The position numbers and the translations under genes were made by a program. This document shows positions 1,624 through 46,167 of a DNA stretch of 64,000 nucleotides, piece by piece; positions within the stretch are counted from its first letter, which is position 1, and every line of letters starts with the position of its first letter. A model generated the notes under the pieces. The model worked only from the letters and a program-made list of their open reading frames with translations, ran no database searches and was not told the DNA's origin. This DNA is from Bilabrum cf. latius (lineage: Eukaryota), in NCBI GenBank assembly GCA_965178125.1, contig OZ237752.1, forward strand, positions 434,001-498,000, written 5' to 3'.

Positions 1624-1915
1624 ATATTGAGAGCTCGGACATTCCCCGCTCATGCTGCTTGCGTTTTGAGTGCGTTGACACACGAGTGGCGTCCTCGGGT
1701 GACGCGGCGGCAGCTCAGCGAGCTACGGGCACGGTTCCCGTCGCTGAAGCGGGCGTCGCCGCGTGGGTAGGGCTGCTGATTGCAAAACACAAGACTGATA
1801 TTAGTTAGCAAGCGATGCACGAAAGCGTCGCGCGACCGCAGGCTCGGTCCGCGGTTGCGACCGGCGGGCCGGCAATCGGTTTCGCTCAATCGAATAGGCA
1901 TTTTAGGAGCTCGAC

Positions 1916-16900: not shown

Positions 16901-18221
16901 TGATATCGGCGGGGCAGTGGAGCTACTGGATGCAGGCGAGTCGGGCGGGATGACCGGTGGTGACGATGACGAGACGATACGGCAAGACGAGTAGGAGATT
17001 GCTGCTTCTGCGGCCGCCGGAGGTGCAGGTGCTGCGCTGCTGGCACGGGCCGCTGCAGGCGAATCTGGTAGGAGTGACGGCACAGGCAGGAGTGATTCCG
17101 GCGATGACGCTGATACCGACGGAACGGGTGGAGTCGTCAGGGAGGAGCGCGAAGGGGACGACGATGATGCTGCAGGAGCGGCTGGTGAGGGCGACGCTGG
17201 GAGGGCAACTGGTACTGTTGAAGGGGCCGGTGATCCGTCTGCAGCTCCTAGCCCGGCGCCGAGCGAGGCTGGAGATGGCAGTGCCGGCCCTAATTCCGGT
17301 ACAACCGGTGGCGGGGAGACCCCCGTGACTGAGGATGCAGACGCATCCGGAGAGGCTGGTTCGCACGGTGAAGGTGGGCAGCAGGCTAGCAGCCAGGCGG
17401 CTGGTGCAGGCGGATCGAGCGGATCTGCAGCGGCCGCTGACACAGGTGAAGGTAGCCCAAGCGTCACTTCTGCTGCCGGAGTATCCGCAACAGTGGCTTC
17501 AGCTGCGCCCGTTTCCCCCGCACAACCCCCGGCGGTGCCAAGCACGAGCGCTTCCCCTGGTGTGGGCGAGCCATCCGGGGAGGTGGGCGGGTCTCCTAGT
17601 AGGCAGAGCGACGCCGGCGATCCTGGGGCGCACGAGGACGAGGGACAGGATGCTGCTGCTGCTGCTGCTGCTGCTGCGGAGGAGGAGGAGGAGGGGGAGG
17701 AGGAGGGCACATCCGGTGAGAGTGATCGTGGGGAGGGCGATGGTGAGGATGAGGATGAAGGGGAGGGCGAGGCAGGCGCACCTGCTGACAATGAGGAAGA
17801 GGAGGAGGAGGAGGCGACAGGCGAGGAGGGAAATGATGGTGTCGAGCAGCAGGCCACAGGCAGGGATGATGAGGCTACTAGTGATGGAGCTGCCGGTGAA
17901 GAAGCCTAGAACGCTGACGAAGACCAAAACGGCAATGCCGAGGAGAACGGGTACTAGTAGCAGTAGATGGGAGAGGGGGGCGAAGAAGATGGTGCCGCTG
18001 AAATGGCACGGACTCACAGCGAGCTGGATGACGAGGTGGTGGATCACGGTGATCCAGACGATGGTGAACTGGGAGCGCCTGCGGGTGGTGCTACATCGGA
18101 TGATGGGGGTGGGGCAGCCGGCGAGGGGGAGGACGGCGTGGGAGGCGCTGCCGCCGAGTCTGACGGAGAGGAAGAAGAAGAGGATGACGAAATGGAGGAG
18201 ACCCATGATCCCACCAACTGA
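1916..18221 (+). CDS. Giant (~5,350 aa) RME-8/DNAJC13-like endosomal protein; one continuous frame when TAG is read as sense (predicted introns 2141-2228 and 2940-3089)
   Basis: All consecutive + ORFs from 2229 to 18221 are in one frame, separated only by 27 TAG codons with no TAA/TGA, and it ends TGA 18219. Predicted exon 1 (ATG 1916 or 1943 to 2140, one more TAG at 1994) joins in phase. Segments recall RME-8: PH-like RRPLLLRCAAKDTLLAHIERASSKRVRIPL, VRRTLAFTDTHVLEV and LAIHLRGGVTRHYVT; WRFLSCVPAWGV; IWN-like LQWTPNMRRHAM...SRIGTYDLRLV. Acidic low-complexity C-terminus. The single-gene call is strong and the family call moderate. Confidence 0.7.
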
Positions 18222-21456: not shown

Positions 21457-23034
21457 TTATGGTTGCAGAGCGGACGCGCCAGCATCCGCTGCCCCGGCAC
21501 CATTCACATCCGAGTGCACAGGCGTCTGCTGCATCGGTGCAGAGCCTCCACCTCCACTCTCGACTTGCCGCTGGTCCTGCTAGCCATCAGCGCCATTCCG
21601 TGTCCAACGCCTGTGAATCTAGGCATTTTCTTCATTGGTACTGCCCGATTTCGCATCCCTATCAGCCCCAGAGCTCCCGCCCAACTGCTGCCGATGCTAG
21701 TGCTAGTGCTAGTGCTAGATCTACTCCTGTTGCTGGTGCTCTCCTCCGTAGGACCAGCCCTGCAGGTCCTCGTCCGTGACTGCGAGCAAATCGTCCTCCT
21801 CATCAGCATCCTCTCCATCGACATGCAGTAGCGGCTTACCGTCCGACTCCAAACCACCCCCTGCACCTGATGTCTTTCCCGAGGAACCGCTGCCACCGGA
21901 AGACCCGTGCCCACTCGTCACAATCTTCACCCGCCGCGGCAGCCCCTGCCCGCGGCTTGCCAGAAGTCGGTCCTCCCTGAAGAAACACAGCAAAACTAGC
22001 CATGCGCACATGCCTACGCACGCGCCGATCGCGGCGCAGTGCATCGACACGGCCAGCCCCGCATCCAGCACCTCGAGCGCCTCCTCTCCTGCTCCCGCTC
22101 CCCCGCCGCTGCCGCTGCCACCGGGCGCTACCTGCGCCCCTCCTGGCTGAGTTCTCATCTGCTCCGCCGCCCGAGACCAAGTCTCTACCAGGGGTCTCTG
22201 CTCTTGTTCCCCATCCCCCATCAGGTAGCCCCCCTCTCCCATCCCCGAAGGGGCCCACACATCGGCGCCCTGCGCATCTGCTGCAGCCATTGCTGTCTCC
22301 TTGACCACCCACAGCCCAGCGAACGCCCCCGCAATGGCGCTGGTGGCTACCAAGTATGGTCTTACAGATGGATGGATCGCGTAGAAGAATTTCCCGGCGA
22401 GTATGTCTCTCGAGCCATTCCGGACCCTGCGGGTGAACCAACGTACTGCGATGCCGTTGGTCGAGTCCACCAAGATCGTAGCAAGCAACGGGCCGGTGGA
22501 ACAGCCAACTATGGCACCTAGTAGGGCCTACCCAGCCAGATGCACCCCATCTAATGTACCAAAACCGAATAAGAGAAGTATAGCTGCGGACCCGGCCAGC
22601 AGCATGGCGTGAGTTTGCGAGAGCACAAACCAGAGAATGCTCTCATGAGATGCTCGTTCCTGCTTGCTCGATTCATATTCAGCTGATTTGCCTTGGTTTC
22701 CGCTTGCTGCACTGGGTTCTGACGCCCCACTGCAGCAAGCAGCACCTCCCTTTGCACATGCCCCCAACACGAGAAGAGATGCCGCGCACCCCGACACAAA
22801 CAAGTCATTTCTGGACTGCAGCAGTCCAAGTGTGATAATACAAAGCACGGCTGCCCCATACGCACCACTTAAACCCTGCAAACGGAAGCAAGGGACAATA
22901 CAATGCTTCTTGACAGTCTATACTGTGTGCTACGAGCTGGGATCACATTCAGATAATCAATTACTCACAGCCCCGCTGGATGACCATATGACCTCATTGG
23001 TTGAGCAAGCGTGCCCTTTATCGTCCTTCACCAT
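21457..23034 (-). CDS. PAP2-superfamily (DOLPP1-like) multi-pass membrane protein with Q/H-rich tail, ~494 aa; intron 22876-22968; 8 in-frame TAG
   Basis: ATG 23034 opens a 22-codon exon, followed by a phase-0 GTGAGT..TTGCAG intron. Several hydrophobic segments. RASHESILWF resembles DOLPP1 PSSHSQFMWF, and GVHLAG*ALLGAIVG resembles PAP2 motif C3 HxxxQVxxG. Ends TAA at 21459-21457. Confidence 0.62.
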
Positions 23035-23615: not shown

Positions 23616-26600
23616 ATGGACGGTGGCAGCGAGGTGAGTCGGTGAAGGGGCAGTTGCGACGCAGTTCCCTTGTTTCTGGAATGAAATTCACCGTGTCTTT
23701 GGGGCCCACGATGTACGAATCGAGTCGTGGGCGGCGTTTGGCCCGCTGATTGTCCAATTCTCGCTCGTTTGGCCAGATCTCACCGCAGGAACCTGCTCCG
23801 GTGGCGTCAAGTTCAAGCAGTGCCGCCTCTACTGGCGCACCCGGAGCAGGTGCTTTGCAAAGTGCCCCACATCAGCCAAATATGCCCTCTGTTGCATCGG
23901 GGGGCACTGGAAGCATGTTAATTGCGCCGGGCCATGCGCTTGGCGGGGGAGTGGCCCCTGTCAGCAGCGCAGGGATCGTGGCGGCTCCCGTGCAACCCCC
24001 CGCGCCTACTCTAGCCGTTTCCGGCCAGATGGGACAGTTGCAATAGGGCTAGTTCCCATAGGCGCTTCCTTCCAATGGCTACATATCTACGGGCATGCCT
24101 GGGCCCCCGTCCGGCCAGGGCGGGATGCTGCTGCATGCGCCCCAGCTCACTATGCCGACCACGGGAGCACCCCCCAGTCAGGCTACGCTGAGCGCGGGCG
24201 CGGCGCCCATGGTGCCGGGCATGGACATACCAGCCGGCGCCGCCCCCCTCGGTACGTCATCTAGCAGTAGCTTCAGCGCCTCGCTGCAGATGCCGCAGGT
24301 GCAGCAGGGTGCTGCCCCGGGGGGGTTCACCCAGGGGTTTGCCCCCCAGTTGGGGTAGGGGGCACCGATGGCCCCGGTGCCAGTCGCCATGCAGGCGTCG
24401 GTCCTGCAGCAGCAGCAGCAGCAGCAGCAACCGATGCAGGTGCAGTCGCAGGTGCCGCCGGCCCCCCTCGCACCGGGACAAGGCACCGCAGCCAGCTCTT
24501 CCATGTGGATCGGAGGCCCAACGGCGGGAGGGATACCGGCAGCGCCACCCGCCCCGAGCGGAGACGGCGCCGAGGAGCTCCCCGAGGAGCTGCAGCACCT
24601 GTGCCTGCCCCCGCCAGAGAACAACCCAGGCTACCCCCAGAGCGTCCTCGAGACAAAGATGCCCCTCTACACGAAGCTGCCCGTCAGGCAGCTGAGGCAG
24701 CTCCTCAGGCACAGGGGCCTCGTCGTGGACGGTGCCAGGAAGACCGTAATCGACAGGGTGAGGCGCTACCTGCGCGGCGAGAAGATCAAGAAGTCGCCCC
24801 GGCCGTCCTCGGGCGCCGGCAAGGGGGACGGCTCCTCGGGTGGGAGGTCGACCCCGAAGAAATCAGCCGCCAGCGGAACCGGTGGCGCCGCGCAGTCCTC
24901 CTCGAGGGTGGCCAAGGTCAAGGCGCCCTCCCATCGGGGACGCAAGGCACAGTCGGCGGCCGTGTCGGGAGGCCGCGGGCGAGGGGGCTCCAAGGCGGCG
25001 TCGGGGGTGCTCAGCCTGGCAGTCGGAGGCAACCTCGCGATGCAGCACTTCCCCGTGTGCACCAGGCTAGCTGACGTGCAGGCGGCCAGCATCGGGGCCT
25101 GCGCCAAGCCGGCCATCGTCCCATACCCTCTGACGGCAGGGCGCGTGGCTGAGCTGGCGTGGGCCGTGGAGGACGCCACATCCGCTGACGTGGATGACGT
25201 GTGGCCGGGGATCACGGCAGACGACCAGAGGGGCAGGCTGGAGCTCGCGCTGCAGCTGCACGCGCGGAGGCTGCAGGTGCAGCGAGAGCGGGAGCAGGCG
25301 TAGGAGAAGGGTTTGAAGAAGAGCGATGGTGCAGGATCATCTTCTGCCAGTGGCGCGGCTGCATCATCGGAGCAGGGCGCTGCCGGGGACCAGGCCTTCA
25401 ATCCCAGCATCGACGTGCTTGCCGCGGGCGATCCTGCCCTCGTGGGAGTGGGGGACGAGGAAGGCGTCTCGGAGCGGACAGGCCCCGCGGGGCTGTACGA
25501 CCGCACCATCGGGCACGCCATCCTGAGGCAGGGGCAGTTCTCTGCCAGGTTTCTTGAGGTGGAGGAGGACGAGGTGCCCGAGACTCACGCTAGGGCTTGC
25601 AGCAACGACGGGAGGGAGGCGAGGATCCTGGACAACTTTGCCTTCTACGACGAGAGCGGGTGAGCGAACCTTCAACGCACGCGCATGCATTCGTATGACA
25701 TTTCCCCCCCTGTCAGCCATGGCGGCTTCGGCTGAGCATGCCGCCTCCGCGCCGTCCAGTTTCCCAACTACCCCCTCACCAATCCTTGCCCCCATTCACT
25801 GTCACCGCAGCTAGCCAGTCCCCCTTGAGTACCTCGACGTGGCGATGGAGAGGGCAGCTGCCGCCAGCCAGGCGGTCTCACAGACCACCGCGCAGCAGAT
25901 GCTGCTGCCCGGACTCATCGGGTTTGGGAGCCTCGTGCCGGTGCCTGACAGCAGGCAAGCTGCCACCGCCATGCCGGAGGTGCCGCAGCACAGCCGCGCG
26001 GCCGCCCCCGAGCTGGAGGAGCTGGTCACGACGGGAGGCAGGCACGCCCGCTCGGCCAACATGTGGCTGCCCGGGGGCAGCCTTGCCAAGAACCGCAAGC
26101 GGTCAGCGCAATCGGTGAGTTCGGTGTGGCCGCCCAGCAGAGAGTCCCCAATCCCACAGTTGTACATGTTTCATTGCTACCGGATTTGCAGGGACCAGTA
26201 TTTCCGTATTGCCTATGGTCTCTATTGTCCACTTTCAAATCTCGCAGATCGGCGGAATGAGCGGTTTCAATGACGATGCCAAGAGGGCGCGAGTGGAAGC
26301 GGGTCCATTGGACCAACCGTTCATGCAGTACTGCGTCGAGTCAGTCATCCTCGAGTCGCAGTCCGACAAGATCTCCATGAAGGCCATTCGACTTGAGGTT
26401 GAGGTGAGCTCTTGCTTGCAGCGTAACGGTGGAAGCAGGCCTTGAATTCATGTGCTGCGCGTGTTTGCTTGCTTCATCTTCGATGGCTTTATCATGTTTC
26501 ACCCTGCCAGTCGCGCGACCAGTTCGACATTTGATCTGTCTCTTCCTCGACCTCGATCGCAGAACCGCATGGGTCGCAGTCTGCAGGACCACAAACACAC

Positions 26601-29600
26601 CCTGAAGGAGATGGTCATGGCAGCCCTAGAGAAGAAAACCAGCGGGCAACTTTAGGCCACCGCGCCGCCCGCTCGTCTAGCCCCACCCCCACCCGAGGAG
26701 CACGCCCACGCCCCCCAAGGTCCACCCAGAGTTGTTCTCCGTGGCATCGTAGAATACGCCATGGACTTCACCAGGGATGGAGATAAGAGCTCTCCGTGCC
26801 TGTGGGTGCGCACTCAAAAGTCGTGGTACCGTGTTGGGGACCTGCAAGGCACGGTGAGGCCCTCGCCGGCCTACCGCAGGCTGTTTCGCCCCACTCTCAT
26901 GCGCCTCGAAGTAGCCGCGAGGGTGCGGCGGATCCTGGCCCAGGCCCTGTTGGATGCCAGGGTGCGCGCTGATAGGCAGGAAGCGATCAATTCGGGGGCG
27001 AGGGCGCAGCTGAAGATGATTGAGGCCGAGCAACAGCGCATGCAGGACGCTGCCGTCGCAGGCGGTGCAGATGATGGCGCAGCTGCTGGATAGCAGGCGA
27101 TGGAAGATGACACGAACGCCTCTGGAAGCGGCAGCTCGGCAGACGTGGGTGGCGCATCCGCCCCAAGCCCAGTCCCCGCCACGCCCACCTCGCCCGCCCC
27201 CGCGGACGCCTTGCAGCAGCCCCAGGACGATTCAGCCCTGGAGGTCCCCGTCCACCTTGAGATGAAGCTGTCGACCGCAGACCTCCTCCGCAAGCTCGAA
27301 GAGGACAGCGCGGAGGCGTGGAGGAGAGAGAAAGCAAAAGAGCAGCAGAGGGCGATAGAGAGGGACGCTAAGCTGGCCGAAATCTTGAAGGTGGCTGTAT
27401 CCGCCGACGTGTCACGGGCCTGGCTGGTGGCCAGGGAGAAGCGGCGGCAGTCGCTGGAGGAAGCCGGTGCGCCGCTGTTGGCCGCTCTGGGGGAGCTGCA
27501 GGCTCGGCTGCTCGGAAGCAGTGCCCCGGTTGCAGCAGAGACAAGCGCGGCAGCGAGTTCGTCCGCAATCATGGAGGCGCCAGCATCCACCGGAGCTGCA
27601 GCTCTAGGGGCAGGCCCATCCTTTGCCAAGTCGTACTCAGGCATCGAGGCCGGCACAGTGCCAGTGGAAGCGCGCCTAGCTGAACTAGCCCAGCAGCTGC
27701 AGGGCTCTTTGGCTTCTGCAGGCGGCCAGGCAGCCATGGAGGGTGGAAGTAGCAGTGGGGCTAGCTCCTCTAGCGGTGACGCCAGCACGGCCTCCATCTC
27801 CGGCCTCCTGCCCCCTGCACTGCGCGCGAGCACGCGCGACATCGTCGAGCTGCTGCAGAGGGTGCCCCCCTCTAGTGTGGCCAGGTCTGCGTCCCCCATC
27901 CATGGCCTCGTACTCCTCCGCGCCCTGCGGCAAGCCAAGCCTGTGTTGGATGCGGTAGTTGAGGCCACACCGGAGGAGCAGGTGGTCGCCCACAGGGTGT
28001 CTGCTGCACTCGAGGCCGTCTCAAAGGCGGGCGAGCTGCCCCGTGCATCCAGCGCGTTCAGCTGCGTGCCGATCAGCGGCGCGTGGATCGCAGAACACGC
28101 GGTCTTCGTGCAGCGCGCAGCCGCTGCTATGGATGAGCAGCTCAAGCTCATGGCCAAGCAGGTGCAGACAGACCAATCCGCCGCAGCATTGACCGGCACC
28201 GCATCTGGTGCGGGCTCTGCTTCGCCTGCAGGTACCCCTACCGTCGCGCAGTCCCTTGTGGCCATGGCTCAGAGCCCCGAAGCGGCTAAGAGGGCGGCCG
28301 ACAGGCTCCTGGCCGCGGCAGGCGCGCGCTTGCTGCCGCCGCTTAAGCGAGATGAGGCTCAGGGGGCGCGCAAGTTCGGGCCATGGCCTGCGGACGGTGA
28401 CGCAGGGGCAGCGGCAGCCTCGTCGGTCTCTCTGCATTCGAGCGATGATGAAGCCAAGGTGCTGGGAGAGTTAGAAGAGGCGAAGAAGATCCTGCAGCAA
28501 GCTGACGAGGCAGAGGCAGATGCTCGTGCCGAGGCGGCCAGCAAGGCAGCGGCAGCCGCAGCGACTGCTGCTCCTCCTACAGGCACCAGGGCCGCCAGCA
28601 AGGCAGCTGGCCTGCAGCTGACCCTGCCATTCGGACTTACGGCGCCCACCGTGCCGCAGTCCCTGATCGCAGGATACCTGGCCCCACCCCTTGCATCGTC
28701 CGCTGTTGCCTCTTTGGCACTGGCGCATGCCGCGCTCGCAAGGTTTAGCACGCTTCCATCCAAGCAGTTGGCGCTTGCAGCCGCCAAGCACGCTCCCGAC
28801 ATCGGGACGCTCGCGGGCCAGCTCCCCCAGACCGCAAGCTCCGAGCCCTTTCTGGACATCTGCGGGGTTGCGGCAAGCCGGGCGGAGCTCATGGGCAAGG
28901 CCGTGGAGGACGCTGGTCTTGCGGCCAGGCTTGCCGACATAGTGTCGGTCAGTCGGGCGCGGGCGGCCTTCGGTGACGAGGACGCTCTCCAGTGTCTCGC
29001 GCACTGCGGCGCCTTTCTGCTTGCGGTGGCCAAGGGTCAGGGCGCGGCGAACGCCGCAGGGTTCCCCCTCCCTTCTAGCGCCGTGCCCGACCTGGCAGAG
29101 CTCTTCGACAACGCGCGGTCTGCGATCCTGGCAGTCACCGGCACTGAGCCAGAGGTGCTGGAGGAGGAGCTGCAGTCCCAGGTGGCACTGCTAGGTGGCA
29201 CCGCCACGGTCGGAAGCGGCCTCGGCTCTGGCGATGTCGCTGGTGCCGGCGGCGGGATCTTTGCCGAGGCAGGGGAGCTGCTGGGCCGCCTAAATGCTCG
29301 CGCTTCTGCCTAGTCGCGAGACGAAATCGAGGCGTCGGTCACGGAGCTCCTCGCTCCCTTGCTGAAGGTCGCCGGCGGGTCCTCCTCGTAGCCCGCCGCG
29401 AGCGACGGCGACGAAGGAGGCGAGGGTGAGGGCGAGGACAACCGCGGGCCGGCCTGGATCAAGGCCCAGACCGCGAGTGCCCCGGGCCGCCGCCCCCTCA
29501 TGGCAGCTCGCGCAGCCCTTAAGGACGCGGAGAAGGCCGCCTACAAGACCCACTCTGCCTGCGTCGGCGAAAAGTATCGGTTGAGCAGGAGGGCCAGGGA

Positions 29601-32600
29601 GGAGCTCCGCAAGCTGAGGAGGGAGGCAGCCAAGAAGGCAGCCGCCGCCGAGGCAGCAAGGAAGCGAAGGGAGCGGGCGCTCCTCAAGCCGAAGGGGGAG
29701 GGCAGAAGCAAGGCCAAGGCCAAGGGCAAGGGGCGCGGGACAAACCCTTCCAAATCTGGCTCGCAGGGAGGTGGGGTAGGAGGCGGACGTACCAACTCGG
29801 ACGAGGACGGGGACGACCTGGAGGTGCCCGACGATATCGACTCCGAGTCCGAGTCGACGGGGCCGGGCGCCCGTGGCGCTGATGGCGGCCCCGGCGGCAA
29901 GTCGATGACGCCGCAGGCGATCGCGCAGCGTGCTGCCCGGCGCGCCGCCAGGCTCCGTGCCCTGCCTGTGCCCCGGCTGCCAACCACGATCGACGAGGAG
30001 CACCTCATGCTGGTGGCCATCGGGGAGCTGCCCCACGACAGGGATCTCTTGGCGCAGCTCAAGGCGAACTTCGCCATCGACGATAGGAAGAAAGCCAAGA
30101 GGGGCAATTCAAAGGCACCAGCACCGGCCCCATCATCGTCATCATCATCGTCTTCGGATGCCGCTGCGGCTGCCTCGGAGGCCGCCGCCAGTAGCAGCAA
30201 GGCAGACGAACCCAGGAAGCGAAGGTCGCCTCCCACGCTCTGGGAGCTGCTCACCCCCATGCAGGCCCGGGACCTGCTGCCTCCCCTCAGCGCCGCCCCG
30301 CCCACCCGAGAGCTCCTGCCGGCCGTTCCTGACGCGCACAGAGGAGCCGTTGTGTCATGCTGGATCCAGCTGTGCAGGCTCGCCCCACTGCTGCGGGTAA
30401 GCCCCATCGGCCTCGAGGCGCTTGCGCAGGCCCTTTTGGCTCCGGATAGCGAGTCTGCCCTCCTGGCAGAGGTATTCTCCAGGGGCACACGGGCCATGCT
30501 GGGGCTGCCTCTGGACAGGGGGCAGGCACTGCGCGCGGCTGCCGCGCAGCAGTCGGCTGCCTACTAGAGACAGAGGGCGGGCGCCAAGAAACTGCTCGTT
30601 GCCTGCAGGGAAGCCGCGAGGAACAAGCACATCGGGCTCAAGACGTTCGGGTGCGTGCCACCGACGCAACTGGCTGACGGGCCGGGCGCTCCTCTGTACG
30701 GTGTGCTCTCGGTGGCCGACGACACTGTGACCCACGACACCGCTGTGCACGCAGTGTTTGCTTAGGATGACACGTGCGATGCCTACGAGTCGCAGGCAGA
30801 GCTGATCCAGGGCAGGGCAGAGGGCCAGGTGCCGTCTGAGGAGGACATCGCGGCCAAGCTTGGCAGCCTGTCGTCGGCGCAGATCGACGGGCAGCAGGCC
30901 ATGGATGCGGAAGATGGCGAGAAGGACAGCGATGAGGACGACGAGGCCAGCGAGGAGAAGCAGGGCCCTAAGTACTACCTGACCAAGCGACAGAAAGAGG
31001 CCCGAAGGAGGAGGCAGGTGCTGCTGCTTGAGGCGCAGAGAGATGCCATGGTGGAGCAGGAGGTGGCTGCGGCTGGAAGGCTCTTTGGCGGAGGCTCAGA
31101 GGCGGCCGCCGGCGGCTCTACATCTGCTTCGGAGCCTGGCTTGCGCAGCGGTGTGCTGCAGAGCGGCTGGCTCAAGTGGATCAGGCAGCAGCGCCGAGAG
31201 ACCACCGAGACCAGGAGTGAGGAAGCGGCGGCGCACGAGGTGCCAGTGCAGTGGCTCGGCGGAGAGGCACTATCTCGCACCATGAGGCTTGGCGAGCAGC
31301 CTCGGTCCATCCGAAAGGCATTTGAGAGCACGCAGGGGCTTTGGGGGGCGCGGGTGGATCCGTATACCGGCGGAGTGAGGCAGGAAGTTGGCATGTGCGA
31401 CGCACACGACGCCACTCTGGCGGGCCTGATGACCGCGGATTGCGGCTCTTGGCAGGAGGTGCTCAGGACGGCCATGTTGCGAGGCCTCGAAGCAGAGGAC
31501 TTTAACCGAATCGCCTGGGGGAATTACCTGACCACAGAGAAGGATCGCCGAGCCGATGCTTTGAAGCTGCTGCAGCAGCTAGAGGCGGATCTGGCAGAGG
31601 GTGGCAGCGGCGGCATGGCAGCGGATTCAGGCGGTGTCATCGGACAAACAAATGGAGGCGAGCATGGCGGGAGCGCCTCCTCTGGCAGTGAACCGGGAGC
31701 CAGCGCCGTGCCGGAATCGGCAGGCGAGCGCGCCGCCACGGCCCTGCTTGGTGCCCCGGCTGCGGCTGGCCAGCAGGCCATGGACGCAGGTGAGGCGTCC
31801 TCCGGGGCTGGCACCGGCACATCCGATTCGGGTGCCGGCATCGACGGCAGCAAGTTGGAGCCGGGTGCCTGCCCGAGTGCCGTACTGGCTGCCGGGGCCG
31901 GCTCGGTGCTCACGGGCCCGACCGGCTGGCGCATGTCGCCGGCGATGGCCAACTGCTACAAGATCCTGTCGGACCTGATGGCAGATCCCCGCGTGCGCAA
32001 GTTCTTGATGGAAGTGGCTGAGGTGATCGAGGACGCGGCAGCGAGGGGGCAGGATGGAGTCAGCCCCGAGGATGATCCGGTGTTCTCCGTGCAGGGACTC
32101 AAGACCACCAAGGCCAAGGCTGCCATCAACGAGGTCAAGCAGATTGCCGTCGCAGAGGCCGGCGGGCACGTCCACGACCGAGATAAGCTTGCGGCAATCC
32201 CTGCCCTCGACTTGCAGATTGTCTGCTGGAGGCTGCTGTCTGGGTACTACTGCGAGGACCACCCGTCCACTGCAGTCGCCAAGCAGAGAGCGAAGGAGCA
32301 GGAGGCAGAGTGGAGGAAAAAGGTGGCCAGCGGTGAGGCAGTGGAAGAAGACGACGACGACGATGACGACGAGGATGATGACGATGATGACGATGATGAT
32401 GACGAAGAGGAAGATGCCAGCGGTGCAGGTGGTGACGGTGATGACGAAGGCGCCGATGAGGATGGCGATGACCAGGAGGAGGACGGCGAGGCCGCTGTTG
32501 GCGGTGAGGACACGGAGGAGGGCGCTGCCTCTGGTGCCAAGAAGAGCAAGAAGGACGGCAATAGAGGCAAGCCCAGGAGGCCCAAGTGGCTGAGGACCCT

Positions 32601-35600
32601 CTATGACACCGAGGGACGGCCGAGGGATGCCATGGCTCCCGGGGGCACCATCGGGGCCGGCCGTGGGTCGGGGATCCGTGGCTTCGCCAGAGACGTCCGC
32701 ATGGTGCTGCGGCACAGGGGCACGCTGACCCTTCGCAAGGCCTCGGGGCTGTCTATCATCGAACAGGCGCACTACATCAAGGAGTGGGAGAGGGAATGCT
32801 CGCGCAGGCGGAAGAAGGGCAAGCAGACAAGGGCACTGGAGCAGCTGGTGCAGGAGAAGGCGAAGGGCGACCTTGCAGCCCTGAGCACCTTCACTACGCA
32901 GTGGCAGAACAAGGCGCTTGCAGTGGAGGCAGAGGAGAAGGGCGCGCTGATCGCTGATGCAGACCACGAGCTGAGCCGCATGCTGGCCCTGGGCCGGATC
33001 CCCGTACCGATGACCAAGGCTGCCGCGGCTGGCGGTGCCGGGGCTGCGTCAAGCGCTTCCAACGCCCCCGCTTCGCAGGACGCTACTCCTGGGTCGGCCC
33101 GCCGCCGGTCGATGAGCGAGGCTAGGGAGGCCGCGCAGGGCCACGCCACGAAGGAGGAGACCCTGCCCGAGGCCTTCCTGGCCCGAGCTCTCGGCGAGCT
33201 GGACTTCAGGCACTGGCCGTTCGAGTGGCGCCTCTCGCTGCTGCAGTGGCTGCTGCTGCAGGTCTCCACCTCTGCCACAGGGAGGGCCTTCGAGGCTGCC
33301 GTGGAGAAGGAGCTGCTCTCCATCAGGAAGGCAACGAAAGAGGCAACGGACAGGATCGCAAAGCTCGGCAGGGAGTTTGCCGCCAAGTACAGGAGCAGGA
33401 AATCCGCCAGGCTCGTGGCTGAAGAAGCCCAGGCGCAGGCACACACTGCAGGCGGCGGGAGCTCCGGCAGGTCCCGTCCCCAGAGGAGCAGAGCGGCGCC
33501 GCAGGAAGAGGACACCGGGCTGGAGGGCGACTCCTCGCTCGACCTGCAGAACGCGCTCGTCATCGCGGAGGAAGTGAACGCCGCCATCGACCTCTACGCC
33601 AGGACCCTCGCCGCCCCGATCTCGATCTCGACGCTGCAGGACCAGAAGGCCAAGACGAGGTACGACGATGCAGTGCGAGCCGCTGGGCCAGAAGGAGGCA
33701 GCCTGCGGGCGGAGGCCGCGGGCGTCTTCGCCCTGCTCAAGCAGCTTAGGGACAGGCGAGAGCTGCTCTCCGGGAGGCCGGAGCACCTGGGCGAGGACAG
33801 GGCAGGGAGGAAGTACTGGTCCATGGCTGCGATCGGGCAGCCGTTCGCGGCCGGTGGGATGGTGCTCGTGGAGGACGCGCCGGAGAGGCACCCGGGCCAG
33901 CTGCTAGCGCGGAAGGTAGAACGGGCGAGGCAGGAGGGCTGGTTGGCGGACGCGAGCCGCAGATGGGCGCGGGATGCCGGCGCAAGAAACGCGAAGATGC
34001 GCAGGAGTGGCGCAGCCGCTGCACCCGATCTGCTCGGAGCCTCTTCTGGGCTGACTGCAGGCGCCGTCGCAATGTCGGACGACCCTGGTGCCACAGCCGG
34101 GGCAGGTGGTCAGAGCAACGGGCAGGCTCCTATGGGCGCTGGCCCGGGCACGGCTTCGGGCGGCCCTGCATCGTCGCTCACTTTCGCCGGGCCGCTGCCT
34201 GGCGACCCCGACGATGGGCCTGGCGTGCACCAGCAGCCGACCGTGGAGGACCTGAGGCCCGGGACTGCCACCGGTGGCAGCCTGCGCATGATGCTTCCAG
34301 AGGACCTACCGTCGCTCACTCGGTGGCTGCTGCCGAACGGGAGAAGCGACGGCCCACTCCTCCAGAACATCCGCGCCGAGCTGCCCAGGCTGTCTGCTCA
34401 GCGGGCGGCGTCCAAGCGAATGGACGCCGCCGCAGCTGCGGGCGCCCTCCGGTTTGCTGCTCGTGTCAAGGGGCTCTTCGACGCCGAGGCGGGAGTGCCA
34501 GGCGCTGGCGCCACGCAGGAGGACGAGGAGGAGGACGAGGACGGCGAGCCCATGGATCTGACCATGAGCATGCTGCGGTCCGCCGACTCTGAGCTGGACG
34601 CCGAGTGGCCCACTGCCCGCGCGCTGCTACTGGCAACGACGGGTACTCCCGGAGAGGACGTGCTTTCTTCGGCCAGGTCCAAGGGTGTCGTCAATGACGC
34701 GATCAAGGCGGCATCCGAGGCCAGGGATGCCGAAGACGCGCGGCTGAGCGTTCGCAGGGGCATGCTGTGCCGCACCGGGAACGTGGCCGACGTGCTAGCA
34801 CCGGCTGTCCCGCGCTGGCTGCAGTTCGACTTGAGCAGCCTGCTTTGGAACGGCCGCTGGATGTGCGTTGATGAACATTGCTCCAATTCGTACGCCCAGA
34901 CGATGCTGCCGGTCTCGCGGTCCTCGTGCGCCGCGCTGCTGCCCGGGGAGATGCCCGACACGCCGTCCATCCGCATGCAGCCGCTGTCTGCTGCCTTCTT
35001 CTGGGCCCGCGTGCGCAAAGGGCAGGACGCGTGCGCTGCTGTGGTGCTGCCCAACTCACCCGCGGTCGCTCTGTCTGGTCTCTGCGACGACAGGAATGCG
35101 TCGTCTGGGGAGCTGCCTGACGATGAGGAGGAGGAGGAGCAGGAGAGGGAGGGCGCCAGGAGTAGCTCGCCGGCGCAGGATGGCGCAGAGGCGGGGACAG
35201 GTGGAGCTGCTACTGCGAACAGCACCGCGAGCGGGCAGCAAGCCATGGACGGTGACCGCGAAGAGGGTGAAGATAGTGATGACAAGCAGAGCGGTAGCAA
35301 GTCTGACGGCGACGAAGACGAGGACGAAGATGAGGATGAAGACGACGGCTCCACAGAGGGCGACCCCTTCAGCAAGAGGGGCCCTTCGAAGGGCGTGGTG
35401 GGGCCCAGGCCCCAGTACAGCCACGCCATGGTGGAGACAGCCGTGTCTGTGGCTCTCTTGCAGGAAGACCCGAGGCCCCTTCTGCTGACTTTCCCGCTGC
35501 CACTGCCGCAGCACGCCTCCTACCGGTCTTTGGCCAACGACGTCATGGACAAGCTCAAGCTCCCGGCGGCCAGGGAACACAGAGAGAGGGAGGCAGAGAA

Positions 35601-37923
35601 GCGCAAGGTCAGGGAAGCCAAGGCCGCCGCGCGTGCCGCCGCCAAGGCCCGCAAGGCCCAGAGGCAAGCAGAGAAGGACAAGGCTGTCGCCGCAAAGGCA
35701 GAGAAGGAGCGGCAGTCCAAGGCACTCTCTGACCCTGCCGTTGCTGCTGCAGCCGCTGCTGCATCCGCCTCTAGCAGCAGCTCCTAGCCAGCCGTGGATG
35801 CCGGCAACGAGGCCTCCGCACCGGCCGCGAGCAGCAGCAGCAGCAGCAGCTCCTCCGCCAGCGCTAGCGTTTCTGCGGGGGGCGCCGATGGCGACGCTGC
35901 TGCGAGCCAGGAGGCAGCCGACACGGTGGACGCGCGGGACAGGGACGAGGTGTGGATGCGGGAGGCCTACCCAGACCTCAAGATGCTGGCCATCGGGGAG
36001 GCAGCCGCGCTCATGCCACAGCCGGGAACTCCTGCGTCCTCCACCGTGAACATGGCAGCCACAGCAGGCGCGTGGGCGGCCTACGATGCGCTGCAGCACT
36101 TCAGGGGCGCTCGCATCTCGCACGAGAGGCTTCTGAGGCCAGCTTCCTTTTCCCCCGAGCAGGAAGCGGGGGCTCTCTTCACGGTGCTGCCGCCAGCCCG
36201 CGTGATGCTGCACGCGGCGCAAGAGGCGAGGGAGGTGCTGTGGCATGAACTGGCCGCGCGCTGGGGGCCCCAAGTTGTCAAGGCGTGGTCTCCCGAGCAG
36301 CCCGAAACGAGCGCCATCGTGCACGTGGAAGCGGCCCAGCGCATGGCATTCGACCAGGAGGAAAGGTTCGTGCGGCTGAGGCACGGGGGGGTGCACTCCC
36401 GCGCCTGGTTCTGTGAGTCGGTAGATGACGCTATGAGGCTGGAGGCTATCGTAGGCAAGCAGGCGGCAAGCAAGGCGGAGAAGCAGGCCGCAGCCGCCGC
36501 CGCCGCTGCTGCTTCGGCCAACTTGTCGTCGAGCCGTGCCAGTTCGGGGACCCCGAAGCGGTCGGCTGCAGCTCCTGGCGGCGCTTCCGCTTCCTCTGCA
36601 AGCGGCACATCGTCCTCGTCCCGCCCCCAGAGGTCTTCGTCAACCAGCTCGGTGCCGGGGCAAGGGAACGACCCATCCGCGGCGGGGGCTGACGGCACGT
36701 CCTTCGCGGGGGTGGCTGCCCCAGCAGACAAGAGCAAGCGCTCGCCGGGGTACAAGGCGGCCTAGGCGCTGCTTCAGCCAGAGCCCAGCGTCCCCTGGGC
36801 CCCCGACGTCGACTCGTGCAGGTCTCGCACGGCCTGGCATACGGAGCCCCTGCCGCTGCTGCCGGGTGCTCGGCAGCCGCAAGCCCCTACGGATGGGGCC
36901 CAGGCAGCGGGGGGGAGCGGGGAACAAGCGGGCTCGTCACAGCAGGCTGCGGCTGGTACCTTGAACGGCGCCGGCTAGGGCGCGGCGAGCGCTGGGGTGC
37001 AGCCACCCCCACCTCTTTCCAACCCGAACGAGGCAATCCTCGCCTCCTAGCGGCCGGCCCCCAACGCTGACGCTGTGGCTGCCAGCCTGACCGGGCTGAG
37101 GCAGCACCTGGAGACTATGGTGCACTCGGGAGCTGCGCGGCGTGACGGTGCGGGTGGCGGCGATGTGGCCGGGGACCAGCCAGCTGAGGTGGTGAGCATG
37201 GCTTGGGACGGCACCCCCAAGGGATTCTCCGCGCGCGTTGCGTGCAGGGCCGCTCTGCTTTAGCTGGAGTAGCGTGTGGTTTCGTCTGGCATGCTTCTGT
37301 CGACTGGGACGGGATGGGAGGGGTCAGAGTACCGCGCCAGGTGGCGTGCCCGCGTGGCAGGCGCCGTGCCGGTGCTGCCTGAATCGGAGCTGCAGAGACG
37401 GGTCAGCGGTATTTTCCATGCCCTTGAGGCGGGGTCGAATTCAGTTGAGGCTGCGCCTGGTGGTCAGGGGGCCGGTGACGGCGTTAAGTCGGATGGTTTG
37501 CTCCAGTCAGCCTTGTCCAAGGCATGCAGTCCCAGCACGCTCGCCGCCATCCAGCGGAGTGCGGCCTGCGTTGCGTCTCTTCGGGCGTGCATGCTCCATC
37601 TCGAAGACAGGGTCACGGCGGAAAGTGACCTTGCGAGCGGTGCGGCGCAGCACGACACGGACGCGCTGGGGATGCCCGAGGGCGCGGCGCAGCTGGCGCG
37701 GGACAAGGGGGCGGGAGAGGCCGTGGCGGAGTGCTGGGGCGTGGCCCGGCCACACTGGCGCCGCGCCGTGTGGGAAGCTCGCACGGTGAGCCAGCTGTAC
37801 TGGCTCGTGAAGGTGTGGGAGCAGTCGGGCTTCGACTGGAGGATTCTTCACGGCGGCGCGAAGGCCAGGCGGAGGAGGAAGGCGATGCGTTCGCAAGCTG
37901 GCAAGGGCATCATGAAGTATTGA
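23616..37923 (+). CDS. Giant (~4,570 aa) DDT/WHIM/WSD chromatin protein (BAZ/ACF1/MBD9-like ISWI partner) with SAP, RFTS-like, DEK_C and bromodomain-like modules; introns ~23634-23776 (or -23788), 25660-25810, 26115-26247, 26404-26562; 18 in-frame TAG
   Basis: SAP: YTKLPVRQLRQLLRHRGLVVDGARKTVIDRVRRYL. RFTS-like: LDNFAFYDESG*PVPLEYLD ... LWVRTQKSWYRV..PSPAYRRLF. DEK_C: ISMKAIRLEVENRMGRSLQDHKHTLKEMV. DDT: VVSCWIQLCRLAPLLRVSPIGLEALAQAL. Bromo-like: CYKILSDLM..LDLQIVCWRLLSGYY..FARDVRMVL. WHIM1: DFRHWPFEWRLSLLQWL. WSD: HLGEDRAGRKYW..LLPNGRSDGPLLQNI. C-terminal WRRAVWEARTVSQLY. All introns join in phase. Ends TGA 37921. Confidence 0.8.
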
Positions 37924-40122
37924 AAAAGTCGTATCGTTCCATTCAGTCATCACCACCACCTTCGATATCTCGCACCGAACCCTCGTCCAAAGCTGAATCC
38001 CCGTGGCACTTATCCAACATCGGATTGAGGCTCCCGAGTTCACTCAGGATGATCCAGCAACACCTATACCCCGTCATGGTGGGGTTGTGGTGTAGCTAGA
38101 GCTCCTGGATCTTCGGTAAATGCAAGGAACTTTTTGTTCCTCCAGAATTTCACAAAACTTCACAATGCTATACATGTGGGTGGGCATTCAAATTGGGTTG
38201 CTTGCATTGTGTGGTGGGATAATCCACCTAGTTGTCCACCTGCGAAAGTACACATGAACTTGGGAGTGGCTGTCGCGGTAGGCATTTCGAACACAATGTC
38301 CATTCAATACAAGTAACAGGCATACAGACACGCCAAATCCGAGGCCTCGGATGGTGATGCATGAATTGTTTGGGCTCAGCACGAAGTTGTCAGAGTCTGG
38401 TTGAACAGTGTTTCCTCATTGGCCTGGCTCCAAATCGAACAACAAGACTTAAGACGCAGATAAAAGGCAAATTGAAGCTCAGCACACTGCTCGGGTCTTC
38501 TTAGAGGTTAAAATTTAGTTTGTCGTCACGAAGCGAGCCGCCCTTGCGGGTAGGCTCAAGTCAGTGGATTGACAGATAAATGGTCTCTTCACCGCAGCTG
38601 CCGTTGCCACATATCGCAGCAATTATCTGGACAAAACCAATATCGAATCATTTCAAGCTGTCAACACGGGCAAGGGGTCAGTGAACTTTGAAGACTATTC
38701 AAGCACACGTTTTCCGATCATGGCCACGCAGCCGGTGAAGGCCGGGCTCAAGAACACGGACCAATGTGTTATTCTTCATTCCCCAAATATACAAGATTAA
38801 CAAAGAAAATGCTATCGTCAACCTACACGGCCGAGGCAACCACACAGCTGCAGTCGTGTATGGCATGACCCAAACAATGATAACCCTCAGATACTATCTA
38901 GCGTTGGAAGCAAGTATCGTCAGTGCAGAAGCCACGAAGACTATCTGTTCTCCGAACCAAAAGGTGCCTCGGTCTCTTCAGCGGGCCAACTTTTGTGGTA
39001 ACAGCAAACCAAGTCACGAAAAGTGTTTACACGCATATGCTGCACGAATCTCACCTTTTAAGAACGTAGCAATAGTGATACACTCTGATTCGACAGGAAA
39101 ATCTGTGCAACTGCGGGTTTAGTAAGGAAGAAGCTCAAGGAATGGATAGTCACGGTGGCCGTAGAGACATGGGTTCAAGCTGATGCCAACAGCGGCCGCG
39201 AATCAACACCCCTCAAACAATGTAGATAAGTTACTCCATGTGCCACGTAATGCGACAGTCAGGTAGAGCTAATATGAGTTTCTCATAGAGGTGTATGCAG
39301 TGAACCGCAACAGTCCCAAACATACAGGCTACTCCAGGTCAGACAAGGCTGAAACAATAGAATCCTCAGTGCCAATGGCTCGGAATCCTTTAGCATAATT
39401 GTTCAGTTCATCACTCCTGGTGCAGACCCGGGACGGGCAGGCGCGGCAAACATGCACAAGCCGCCAGAGCACACAAACAGAACACTATATCGGTCGTCGG
39501 ACTAAAAAGAATGCGTTCTCGTCACTCCCTAAGGTAGGAAGACCGTCGTAATTAGCATAAATGAGGTTCTTCATTCGACCTACAACGGACAAACACTGAT
39601 CCCTAATCTACGATTCGATTCAGGCCAAGGGCTGACTGTCAATCCGTACACACCTGCCGCGGCCGTACAGTACAGCGAGGGATCAAACACGGCTGAGGAC
39701 TTACAGCTATTTCATAATGCACGGGTTTCACCAGTGATGAAATCGCCTGAAATTCTACTCCATTTGGGTGCCTAATTGTGCCTTCAGCGCAGGCAGCGGC
39801 GGCAGCGGCTGTCATAAACTGCACCTTACAAAATATGTAATTTATTCAGCGCTCGGTTCCTAGACGTGGGAAAGAGAGCGCCAAGGCAACGCAAACTTGA
39901 AGTGGGATATCTTGCTGCCCCGGCATTTTATCTTTGTTGTGTGCAGGCCAGGCTGCAGTACTACACGCCCTGCTGGCTGTTAGCTCGACGGAGACTTCCG
40001 TTGGACAGCTCTTTCTTGCAGCGGGTACATTCAACAGCTGAAGAGTTCGCTTGCCTAGGCGGAGCAGTTACCTTGATTGCTCAAGATAAGCTCTTTCATA
40101 CACGTTGAAGTTGTTATTAAGT

Positions 40123-43100
40123 ATGGAATCTGGAGCCAGTCGCAGGTTAGAGACATCGCAGAGTGTCCGTTCTGTCACGTCATCGAAAAAATCTGTGAGA
40201 CCGAAGAGGGTGTGAAGGGCGCTATCAGACCATCTAAAAAGATACTAGTTACTTTATTTCATTGCTAGGCTCGTCTTTTTAAGCAGGCCGATGACTTGCG
40301 AGAGTACTCGTGCTGTTGCCTCACCAGGTCCAGCTGGCTCCGAAGCTCCGCCATCCAGCTGTGGGCCCATCCGTGGTTCGATCGGTTCATCGTCGGGTGT
40401 ATTTTGCTGAACTGTGCCATTTTGGCCTTGAACGACCCACTTGATGTGGAGTCTGACGGCTGGCGGAACAAGGTCATCGAGGCAGCGGAGCTGCCATTCA
40501 CGATCATCTTCACAATCGAAATGATCGTGAAAATCATTGCCATGGACTTTATCGGCCCAAAATCGTATCTATCTGACGCTTGGAATTGGCTCGACTTTGT
40601 GGTGGTGCTGACCGGGTAAGAGCGCCATATTCTAGATTGACTCCAGCTTGCGTGCCGTGCGCCAAACAGCCCTTTTTCGTCTGTAGGCCTATCAAATGAT
40701 CTTGCAGGTTCATTTCTATGTTTCCATCGATGGGAAACTACTCCGCGCTGCGTACCTTCCGGGTGCTTCGGCCGCTGCGGACACTGACCTCGATTGAGAG
40801 CATGCGGGTGATCGTCAAGTCCATGCTGGCGTCCATCCCAGCCCTGTTCAGCGTGGTTCTTCTGTGCGCCTTCATCTTCCTTGTTTTCGGAATTGTTGGT
40901 GTGCAGTTGTGGCCTGGAGCTCTCCAAGGTCGCTGCATGTACGAGGACCCCGAGGCGCCCGGCACTCTGCTCCAGACGCCAGCAGAGCAGCACTGCCCCG
41001 TCTCGTGTGCGGACCAAGCAGAACTGTACCCTGGCGTTGAGTGCATTTAGTACTATGGGTAGCAATGCAGTTCCCAGACAGAGCTGCTGCATTCGTTCGC
41101 AAACGGAACCACTGCATCGGTGGTGCTGCCGACAGTGTGCCGCTATGTGGAGAACCCCAACTTCGGTTTCACCGGCTTTGACAACATCGGGCAGGCATTC
41201 CTGACTATCTTCACGTCAATCACCCTAGAGGGCTGGGTGGACGTGATGTACGGCCTGAACGCAAGCTGGGGAATCGCCCCGTTCAACGCCTTCTACTTCA
41301 TCTGCCTAATCCTGTTCGGCAGCTTCTTCCTCCTCAACCTGGCCCTCGCCGTGATCTGGGACGAGTACGAGAAGGCCGAACAGCAAGAGGCCGAAAAGCA
41401 CGAGAAAGAGGCCGCGGAGCAAGCTGCAATCGATGACGAGAAGCGCGCGAATGGGGAGGAAGTGCCGGCGAGGGGCAGCGGCGATACCGACGAGGGGGAA
41501 CGCGACGAGGACGAGGCACAGCTGCACCAAGCCCTGAATTCGTGCTGCGGGTCTGCCGGCCGGCCCATCGTCGAGAGCCTCACAGTGATCGTGGAAGCTC
41601 CGCTATTCGACTACGTGGTCACATTCCTCATCATACTCAACACGGTGGCTCTGTCAATGGAGTATCACGGCATGTCGGAGAGTTACACGACCGGGCTCGA
41701 GGTTGCCAACTACATCTTCACCGCGTGCTTCGCCATGGAGATGGTCTTCAAGATGCTCGGCCTGGGTCTCGCCGGCTACTTTTCCGTCAAATTTAACATC
41801 TTTGACTGCGTGATCGTCGCATTTTCGCTGGTGGAGATCGGGTTCGAGCTGGCGAGCTCGGATGCTCTGGGTGCCGGGCTGTCCGCACTGCGCACCTTCC
41901 GCCTCCTCAGGGTGTTCAAGCTGGCCAAATCGTGGGAGGATCTAAACAAGCTATTGTCTACCATCGCGCAGAGCATCATGGAGGTGGCCAACGCCTCGGT
42001 GGTCCTGCTCATCATCATGTTCATCTTCGTGCTGCTAGGCATGCAGATGTTCGGCGGAGTCTACGACGACAGCTTCTCGCCGGATGAGAAGCCGAGGGCG
42101 CACTTTGACAACTTCTGGTGGGCATTTGTGACCGTGTTCCAGGTTCTCACGGGCGAAAACTGGAACGAAGTTCTGTACAACACCATGTTTGCCGCGGGCC
42201 CTGGTGCGGCTGTCCTGTACTTCGTTGCTCTCAACATGGTCGGCAACTACCTCATCCTCAACCTTTTCCTGGCAATCCTGCTAGGTAATTTTGATGTAGA
42301 GCCGGACGTTGATGAAGACGAGGAGGAGGAAGAGGCGGGGAGCGGAGAAATAGGTCAAGGCTTTGGAAAGTCAGCTGCTGGAATGCACAATTCGCCGGGC
42401 GGGTCGGCCATCGTCGATGTCGCGAGGCGTGGACTTGGCAGCAGCAGCAGCGGCGGCGCCATGCCGCAATACACCGAGACCGAGTCCTCTGGGCTGTCTA
42501 GTCCCAAGCCCTTGCCGGCGGCGTCTGGCAACACCAAGGAGCTTCGTGCAGCGCTGTTCAGTGCTGCCTCGTCATCGCATGGGCCAGCTCCGTTCCAGGT
42601 CGAGCCCACAAAGAAGCCAGCGTCTACCTTGTCATCGGGAGCAGCGGAAGAACTGCCGCTTGGTGGCGCAAGTCGAGTGCTTTCAGCCCCAAAAAAGGGG
42701 GCATCTGACCACCTGATCGCCAGCAAGGGCGGTGCAAGCGGGCACCAAGGTGAAGAGAATGAGAAGGAGCTCCGGCAGTCTGTCTCGATGGAGGAGTTGC
42801 ACAGCGAGCAGAACCGCCATTCAGAAAACCAATCCATGGATGTCGCTGGCACCGCAAGCTCCAAGGCCACAGATGTGAACGCATCCTCACAGAGTGCCAA
42901 AGGACCAGGAACGGAGGCTGCGCAGGCTCACTCGTCGTTCGTCGTTGGAGTGGGGGGCAGCGCCGCGTCGCACTCGACACCATCTACGAACGCCAGCAGA
43001 CAGTCTAAAAGGTCCCAGAAGAGCGGCACTCCGCGGACCTCCAGGGAACTGAGCACCCCCACTAGGGGCAGTCGCCGGCGATCGAACGTGCTGAAGACGG

Positions 43101-46100: not shown

Positions 46101-46111
46101 GCACTAATTGA
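40123..46111 (+). CDS. Four-domain voltage-gated cation channel alpha subunit with EEEE filter (Cav-like), ~1,940 aa; introns 40195-40268 and 40616-40707; TAG at 41048, 41060, 44432, 45542
   Basis: Four S4 sensors: LRTFRVLRPLR, LRTFRLLRVFK, MRALRALRPLR, FRIVRVARVVR. Pore loops: ITLEGW, LTGENW, ATGEMW, STGESY. EF-hand-like WQTVDPDASGFV and IQ-like AVRAIQKTAR follow domain IV. Ends TGA TGA. The first exon is inferred from phase-compatible splice sites. Confidence 0.94.
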
Positions 46112-46149
46112 TGACGTTTATATATCTTTGATAACTTTGTACACCGTAG

Positions 46150-46167
46150 CCGGCGCCGTGAAAGGTC
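46150..46167 (+). repeat. Left terminal inverted repeat core of the transposon
   Basis: CCGGCGCCGTGAAAGGTC, the exact reverse complement of 50027-50044. Confidence 0.9.

Follow-up and report, generated by a model that had tools for sequence, protein, structure and literature searches.

How is the codon TAG read in Bilabrum cf. latius? The question arises from a short peptide, GQQAM followed by D or E, that occurs four times in a 64,000-nucleotide (nt) stretch of this eukaryote's DNA (GenBank assembly GCA_965178125.1, contig OZ237752.1, positions 434,001 to 498,000; hereafter, the window) and that is once written with TAG in place of a glutamine (Gln, Q) codon. The four copies of the peptide are as follows, with a lowercase q for Gln written as TAG here and below:

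27088..27105, + strand: motif copy 1, G-q-Q-A-M-E, written GGA TAG CAG GCG ATG GAA, with the TAG at 27091-27093
30889..30906, + strand: motif copy 2, GQQAMD, written GGG CAG CAG GCC ATG GAT, an acidic run next
31768..31785, + strand: motif copy 3, GQQAMD, written GGC CAG CAG GCC ATG GAC
35233..35250, + strand: motif copy 4, GQQAMD, written GGG CAG CAA GCC ATG GAC, an acidic run next

These places and codons are exactly as an earlier note on this DNA had quoted them. The pattern GGNYAGCARGCNATGGA has four matches (starts 27088, 30889, 31768, and 35233) against 0.00 expected (both strands searched, 100 shuffles), and all four GGNYAGCARGCNATGGA matches are 17 nt long, on the + strand, and in frame 1 (starts equal to 1 modulo 3). 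The codons of the copy at 27088, set against those of the other three, also confirm the note's statement that TAG fills the CAG position of the motif. All four copies share one frame (26452-37923, 3823 codons) that is open only if TAG is read; we refer to its gene as the host gene.

Our answer, to which we assign a probability of about 0.88, is that a eukaryote with a genome rich in guanine and cytosine (GC; ~62% in the window) and poor in introns reads UAG as Gln and uses UAA and UGA as stops, and that the repeated word is a peptide motif in a giant protein of chromatin type.

TAG as a sense codon

Under the standard code, the longest stop-to-stop frames of the window have 1673, 1240, and 1123 codons. 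With TAG as a sense codon, the longest frames grow to 5358, 3825, 1803, and 1774 codons, whereas with TAA or TGA as a sense codon the longest frame still has 1673 codons. Nine large frames, with 16131 codons in total, contain 489 CAG, 108 CAA, and 69 TAG codons, and neither TAA nor TGA; TAG therefore makes up 69 of the 666 Gln-type codons (~10%). If the ratio of TAA to TAG followed that of CAA to CAG, about 15 TAA codons would be expected in the nine frames, and none is observed. The gains from reading TAA as sense are limited to a tail of 10 codons, antisense frames, and a 5′ stretch full of stops. In the host frame (26452-37923), there are 12 TAG codons and no TAA or TGA, while the other two frames hold 55 and 84 TAA and TGA codons. 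Eight of the 10 large frames end in TGA, two in TAA, and none in TAG, the frames being defined by TAA and TGA. A similar picture is seen in a metagenome contig that is described in the next section (L001), in which 4059 codons include 26 TAG and no TAA, with about nine TAA expected. Moreover, after the conserved C-terminal residues ...KGIMKY, the stop is TGA in the window and TAA in L001. We conclude that TAG is a sense codon and that TAA and TGA are terminators; the evidence on the retained TAA and TGA stops covers 64 kb of the window and 15 kb of L001.

Contigs assembled from sequencing reads show that TAG is kept in RNA. We aligned the Logan contigs of four runs, none of which is recorded as RNA, to positions 26200-46199, a region that includes the host gene and a voltage-gated cation channel gene downstream of it. 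Contigs of run X1 are colinear with the genome and have both introns of the channel gene. In contrast, contig record 14 of run X5 (6126 nt) skips 40195-40286 and 40615-40706, which are the two channel introns, each 92 nt long and bounded by GT..AG. Joining the three spliced pieces restores domain I of the channel, from segment S1 to S4, in one frame. Because two GT..AG introns are removed and domain I is restored, this contig derives from a spliced transcript. It matches 40707-46179 with no other letters, a range that contains the TAGs at 41048, 41060, 44432, and 45542, and TAG is thus kept in a spliced, transcript-derived contig. Across the host gene, X5 contigs are colinear with 26561-32334 and 32419-37703, again with no other letters. 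Therefore, the body of the host gene undergoes no splicing, and no editing of its TAGs takes place.

The residue at TAG

To find the residue that TAG encodes, we compared the TAG sites with homologous proteins. Residues 1-1200 of the host protein, used as the query of a full search, returned nine proteins. Word-index searches, which yielded no more than 2, 3, and 4 fragments because low-complexity words crowded the candidate lists, added seven fragments. Nine fragments are 88-97% identical to the two giant proteins of the window (4449 aligned codons, 92% identity) and represent a close relative. These fragments start with M where our codon is GTG or TTG, and their breaks fall at our TAGs. Hence, the table used to translate them was of bacterial type and treated TAG as a stop, and a Q in a fragment stands for CAA or CAG. 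Opposite our TAG codons (n = 14), the close relative has Q at nine sites, S at three, E at one, and a gap at one. The gap adjoins a Q, and one of the three S sites falls within a poorly alignable low-complexity run. As a control, the same tally returned the correct residue as the most frequent one for 60 of 60 sense codons (n ≥ 5), with CAG paired with Q at 123 of 128 sites and CAA at 25 of 27. The site within the motif is among the nine: opposite AGqQAMEDD of the window, the fragment P0006 (92-93% identical) has TGQQAMEDD, with Gln at TAG 27091, and it has Gln at TAG 26653 as well. The C-terminal ends of eight fragments are reached in the alignments; four stop exactly before our TAG, and the others before CAG, TCG, GAG, and ATA. 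Within the window itself, TAG also occurs inside Gln-rich runs (GYqqQqMG at 17955 and LQqGqFPqAL at 24044).

More distant homologues were sought in metagenomes. A scan with the protein P0017 gave no match. A scan with the channel gave 47 loci, of which only L001, a 14.8-kb contig with a GC content of 0.56, has a strong signature of TAG as a sense codon. Its longest frame extends from 496 to 2215 codons when TAG is read, and the other 46 loci have no comparable gain. Three of them (L040, L041, and L046) gain modestly, from 424 to 651 codons twice and from 150 to 268 codons, and may represent other TAG-reading lineages or chance. The gene order of L001 is that of the window: an orthologue of the host protein (3-6650) is followed by the channel (9187-14715). 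The former spans the C-terminal 2215 residues of the host protein, and the two proteins are 49% (host) and 61% (channel) identical to those of the window. Where 10 or more of 20 neighbors are identical, our TAG codons (n = 7) face Q four times, K twice, and S once in L001, and the TAG codons of L001 (n = 10) face Q four times, G and K twice each, and S and A once each in our sequence. For comparison, CAG is paired with Q at 54% of sites in our direction and at 67% in that of L001, and the control tallies were correct for 53 of 54 and 60 of 60 codons, respectively. Judged from these alignments, the change of UAG alone appears to be common to at least three diverged genomes, namely, those of the window, the close relative, and L001.

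Two other approaches did not single out a residue. In a test of k-mers flanking TAG, the control codons were not recovered either, and in solved channel structures the TAG-encoded residue 1239 is aligned with M, G, or S.

The earlier note had proposed that TAG encodes Gln on the basis of the motif. One TAG-containing copy is weak evidence by itself, and the proposal is now supported by the close relative (Q at 9/14 sites, including 27091) and by L001 (4/7 and 4/10). Among the residues that the note had named as competitors, Leu, Tyr, and Trp do not occur at these sites in orthologues, and Glu occurs at one of 14, with Gln the most frequent. Gln is thus the reading of TAG best supported by the alignments. 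We propose that ribosomes read UAG as glutamine and still terminate at UAA and UGA. TAG is then a third, minor Gln codon that exchanges with CAG by a silent C/T transition. Its decoding would presumably involve a Gln transfer RNA (tRNA) with anticodon CUA and an altered release factor.

The motif, its host protein, and neighboring genes

The recurrence of the motif is specific to the four places. Translating the whole window in six frames gives QAM[DE] only there, and GQQAM is the sole 5-mer with at least four distinct residues that recurs at least three times in the host protein; a multiplicity of four was attained in one of 1000 block shuffles of that protein. Mean DNA identity among the four copies is 0.82 in the 18-nt core, compared to 0.29 and 0.34 in the 30-nt flanks, and of the five variable sites of the core, four are wobble positions and one is the T/C of TAG/CAG. 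Variation that is limited to these sites, together with unrelated flanks, points to selection on the peptide rather than on the DNA. One of the four copies would be written with TAG because TAG and CAG interchange by the silent C/T transition. The acidic runs after two of the copies have an acidic share of 44-52%, and the surroundings of the motif, judged from their composition rich in Gly, Ser, Ala, Asp, and Glu, are putative disordered linkers. We suggest that GQQAM[DE] is probably a candidate short linear docking motif that would act within such Gly/Ser/Ala/acid-rich linkers.

Orthologues retain the core Q-x-A-M-[DE] in part. Copy 1 is identical (GQQAME) in the close relative's P0006, and its counterpart in the orthologue P0008 (40% identical) is SGQMDE; at the place of copy 4, the orthologue in L001 has EQVAMESE, the sole AM[DE] among its 2215 residues. 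Copy 3 is covered by none of the orthologues, and copies 2-4 lie outside the fragments of the close relative. We also considered a PCNA-binding PIP box, whose consensus is Q-x-x-[ILM]-x-x-[FY]-[FY] with an aromatic pair at positions 7-8. This candidate was rejected: in none of the four copies is there an aromatic residue, and Q-Q-A-M is followed by D, E, G, or A residues. A similar word, GIqQAMA with a TAG, is seen in the C-terminal region of the channel (45542-45553), directly before an IQ-like IQKTAR stretch; its likeness to QQAM is probably due to chance.

The host gene and its predicted parts are as follows:

23750..25659, + strand: putative upstream exon with a SAP domain (Pfam SAP, E = 3.3e-5), part of a predicted gene model
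25811..26114, + strand: putative exon B, flanked by GTGAGC...CGCAG and GTGAGT
26248..26403, + strand: putative exon C of the predicted gene model
26563..37923, + strand: main exon of the host gene, ending in TGA, with a frame open from 26452 and 12 in-frame TAGs
26710..26961, + strand: weak DNMT1-RFD-like region (PF12047, E = 3e-4, 21.3 bits against a cutoff of 22)
27724..27741, + strand: degenerate fifth motif copy, (G)GQAAME, found by six-frame translation and kept in fragment P0005 of the close relative
30346..30477, + strand: weak DDT-like region (PF02791, E = 0.0058, 17.2 bits against a cutoff of 22)
33778..33879, + strand: very weak WSD/WHIM-like region (PF15613, E = 0.038, 14.6 bits against a cutoff of 25.4)

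The TAGs of the main exon are at 26653, 27091, 29311, 29389, 30565, 30763, 35785, 36763, 36976, 37048, 37261, and 37270. The frame with the SAP domain probably joins the main exon through three introns. The predicted introns (25660-25810, 26115-26247, and 26404-26562) are of the GTGAG...CGCAG type, and the joined frame has no stop in 869 codons. In addition, the aligned block of X5 contig record 9 starts at 26561, which is the predicted acceptor (26562/26563) within a 2-nt AG ambiguity, and this contig has 1712 further letters upstream of the block. The SAP match (E = 3.3e-5) is borderline, slightly below the family cutoff.

The domain content of the host protein provides a lead, at the level of sequence profiles, toward a large DDT/WHIM-type factor associated with chromatin, with no family assignment. 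The DNMT1-RFD family is precomputed for P0006 and weak in P0008, and the DDT match recurs at the same place in the orthologues P0009 (E = 0.0036) and P0007 (E = 0.13). An AlphaFold model of the DDT region has a mean predicted local distance difference test (pLDDT) score of 54, and its best fold-search match is generic (Z = 5.3); a profile of the region returned only coiled-coil noise from PDB sequences. DDT/WHIM proteins (BAZ/ACF1-like) are accessory subunits of ISWI remodelers. Similar to them, the host protein is very long, has acidic linkers, and has weak DDT and WSD matches in the canonical order. Unlike them, it has an RFD-like and probably a SAP domain upstream, its DDT and WSD matches are below the Pfam cutoffs, and no bromodomain or PHD finger was found in it. 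Directly after the host gene lies a segment of about 90 nt (38027-38116) to which each of the four runs contributes many short, diverged contigs; their summed depth reaches ~500, compared to ~16 alongside in X1. The window contains no second copy of this segment, which is probably a dispersed repeat.

With TAG as a sense codon, the window encodes two giant frames without strong domains, a Myb protein, a piggyBac-like transposase, an FAD-linked oxidase, a CN-hydrolase, and the voltage-gated cation channel, which has four domains (Ion_trans, E = 1.5e-213). This gene content indicates that the window is eukaryotic nuclear DNA. The S1-S3 segments of channel domain I lie in upstream exons (39870-40706, + strand), and the frame start at 40718 is not the true N-terminus. 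With seven TAGs in 625 codons, the transposase (47706-49583, + strand; DDE_Tnp_1_7, E = 8e-13) is the densest in TAG of the frames seen, and hence this mobile element lives under the code of its host. A 5352-codon frame with 27 TAGs (2163-18221, + strand) has no Pfam match in either half and is represented by 88-97% identical fragments in the close relative. At 21699-21723 (− strand), in a putative 474-codon frame without a Pfam match, TAG and CAC codons alternate (qIqHqHqHqH), forming a microsatellite partly made of the reassigned codon. In the CN-hydrolase gene, a TAG immediately precedes the ATG at 61496 (61493-61498), and the protein starts either at 61496 or about 40 codons upstream (MAAVSSSE...), with that TAG read as Gln. 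A protein atlas places this nitrilase-like protein only in generic eukaryotic CN-hydrolase clusters, which point to no particular lineage. No Rfam family was found in the window.

Competing explanations and known codes

Could the TAGs have another meaning? Intronic, edited, and pseudogene stops are known in general, and the in-frame TAGs of the window could be untranslated for any of these reasons, being spliced out, edited to CAG in the RNA, or marks of decay. Nothing was found that favors this explanation, and we find it scarcely credible given that the X5 contigs are colinear over 12 host and four channel TAGs in a run from whose contigs two real introns are removed, that the 16131 codons hold no TAA or TGA against 55-84 per off-frame in the host gene, and that orthologues remain 88-97% identical through the TAG sites. 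It is also very unlikely that TAG is a sense codon for another residue (Ser, Leu, Glu, Lys, or Tyr), which would make the copy at 27088 a G-x-QAME variant. Such a reading could draw on the Ser (3/14) and Glu (1/14) of the close relative, on the Lys of the L001 comparisons (2/7 and 2/10), and on a likelihood computed from neighboring residues, which tied L, R, and Q within 1.3 log units but was poorly calibrated, its top-ranked residue being correct in 66 of 285 trials. However, Gln is the most frequent residue in all three comparisons (9/14, 4/7, and 4/10), for which the control tallies were right for 60/60, 53/54, and 60/60 codons, and Leu, Tyr, and Trp are absent from all three. In the distant comparison, Gln is as conserved at TAG as at CAG and CAA; for Ser in particular, one of the three sites is the poorly alignable one. 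The non-Gln partner codons TCG, GAG, and (in L001) AAG, to which that reading could also appeal, are all one step from TAG. We give an outside chance to an ambiguous code, in which UAG would be Gln within genes and, depending on context, the terminator of some of them, an addition to the Gln reading. Codes with context-dependent stop or sense meaning are found in Condylostoma and in karyorelict ciliates. The lower conservation of TAG than of CAG and CAA sites would fit such a code, and so would the denser TAGs of the transposase than of the channel or Myb genes, which fit costly or leaky decoding. On the other hand, none of the 10 large frames needs a TAG end, which is partly by construction, and no base is strongly preferred after an in-frame TAG (C 22, G 22, T 14, and A 11). 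As for the repeated word, there is a slim chance that it is a remnant of internal duplication or a signal at the DNA or RNA level, such as one for internal initiation, instead of a docking motif. Each copy contains an ATG with GCC or GCG before it and G after it, and GCC ATG G resembles a strong start-codon context. Yet the copies vary only at wobble and TAG/CAG sites, with flanks at background identity, and distant orthologues retain residues (SGQMDE and EQVAMESE) and not nucleotides. The three putative gene starts in the window have a different context, a number too small to decide on internal starts.

Several observations weigh against reading TAG as Gln in a motif-bearing protein. The library type of X5 is unrecorded and an automatic guess calls it "probably DNA," and so the transcript origin of its contigs rests on the splice joints. 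No tRNA or transfer-messenger RNA gene, and hence no cognate tRNA, is seen in the window, and the gene for the release factor eRF1 lies outside it. In the close relative, five of the 14 TAG sites are not Gln, and 9/14 is significantly lower than the 148/155 of CAG and CAA sites (Fisher's exact test, P = 0.001), even if the four TAGs shared at fragment ends are counted as conserved (P = 0.003). That these four TAGs are shared is itself suggested by protein fragments, whose ends may instead be the ends of contigs. The tie among L, R, and Q also counts here, as do 29 standard-code channel homologues from the metagenome loci, which have varying polar residues (R, K, E, D, A, and S) in the TAG columns; among these homologues, no column at a channel TAG site is dominated by Leu, Trp, or Tyr. 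The lower conservation points to no other residue; it may reflect retention of TAG mostly where constraint is weak, or a cost of decoding it. The idea of a short linear motif, which the earlier note had raised, gains from the nonrandom recurrence and the partial conservation of the core and loses from copy 2, for which no counterpart is visible in the orthologue P0009 (43% identical).

The code of the window is a nuclear code in which UAG alone is reassigned to Gln, a kind that is already known (NCBI table 15, or Iotanema type). Iotanema spirale (Fornicata), an anaerobic metamonad known from its transcriptome, reads UAG as Gln and keeps UAA as a stop, its main one (PMC5304391). Similar to this species, only UAG has become Gln in the window, UAA and UGA terminate, and the meanings of UAG and UAA are decoupled. 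Unlike in that species, the genome here is GC-rich and intron-poor, and TGA ends eight of the 10 large frames. Among ciliates, Protocruzia tuzeti and two phyllopharyngean lineages likewise assign UAG alone to Gln (table 15 type; PMC11687900). The codon table of the window is the same as theirs. The window differs from ciliates in its GC content of ~62% and in its multi-kilobase frames rich in Ala, Gly, and Ser, and nothing ciliate-like was seen; its introns are 92-159 nt long with GTGAG...CAG ends. Ciliates are mostly AT-rich.

Two other groups of codes offer partial parallels. Both UAA and UAG (UAR) are Gln in many ciliates, Hexamita, Streblomastix, Ulvophyceae, and Amoeboaphelidium (table 6 type; PMC11687900). 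These codes share with the window the capture of a stop codon by Gln and the silent TAG-CAG transition. In contrast to them, TAA is not a sense codon here (none in 16131 codons, against ~15 expected), and TAA ends a conserved C-terminus in L001. UAG is Ser in Scotinosphaera and Leu in the rhizarian exLh (PMC11687900, PMC5304391). In these two, as here, UAG is reassigned alone and UAA is retained. They differ from the window in the residue, with Gln the most frequent here, Ser at 3/14 sites, and Leu absent.

A literature search (supplements excluded) found no GC-rich, intron-poor lineage in which UAG alone is Gln. It is possible, although we hold it doubtful, that the window, the 88-97% identical relative, and L001 represent a nonciliate, GC-rich, intron-poor clade whose UAG-only Gln code is undescribed in the searched literature and which has faster-evolving TAG sites and a lineage-specific motif. 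If so, UAG would have been decoupled from UAA independently once more in this clade. The faster evolution of TAG compared to CAG and CAA would hint that the codon is still costly or is kept at weakly constrained positions, and GQQAM[DE] would serve a SAP-RFD-DDT chromatin protein as a docking motif particular to the lineage.

Regardless of its novelty, the case has a practical side, in that annotation of this genome with the standard code breaks genes at TAG, and public protein fragments are already broken in this way. The repeated GQQAM[DE] provides both a compact internal check of the code and a candidate docking motif. Changes of UAG with UAA kept are few (Iotanema, Protocruzia, some phyllopharyngeans, Scotinosphaera, and one rhizarian; PMC5304391, PMC11687900), and such cases show that UAG and UAA are mechanistically separable. 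A GC-rich lineage with long, intron-poor genes and with at least three diverged genomes of the same code would let the turnover between TAG and CAG be measured codon by codon, and it would allow a test of the selective neutrality of the new codon and a search for changes in tRNA and eRF1.

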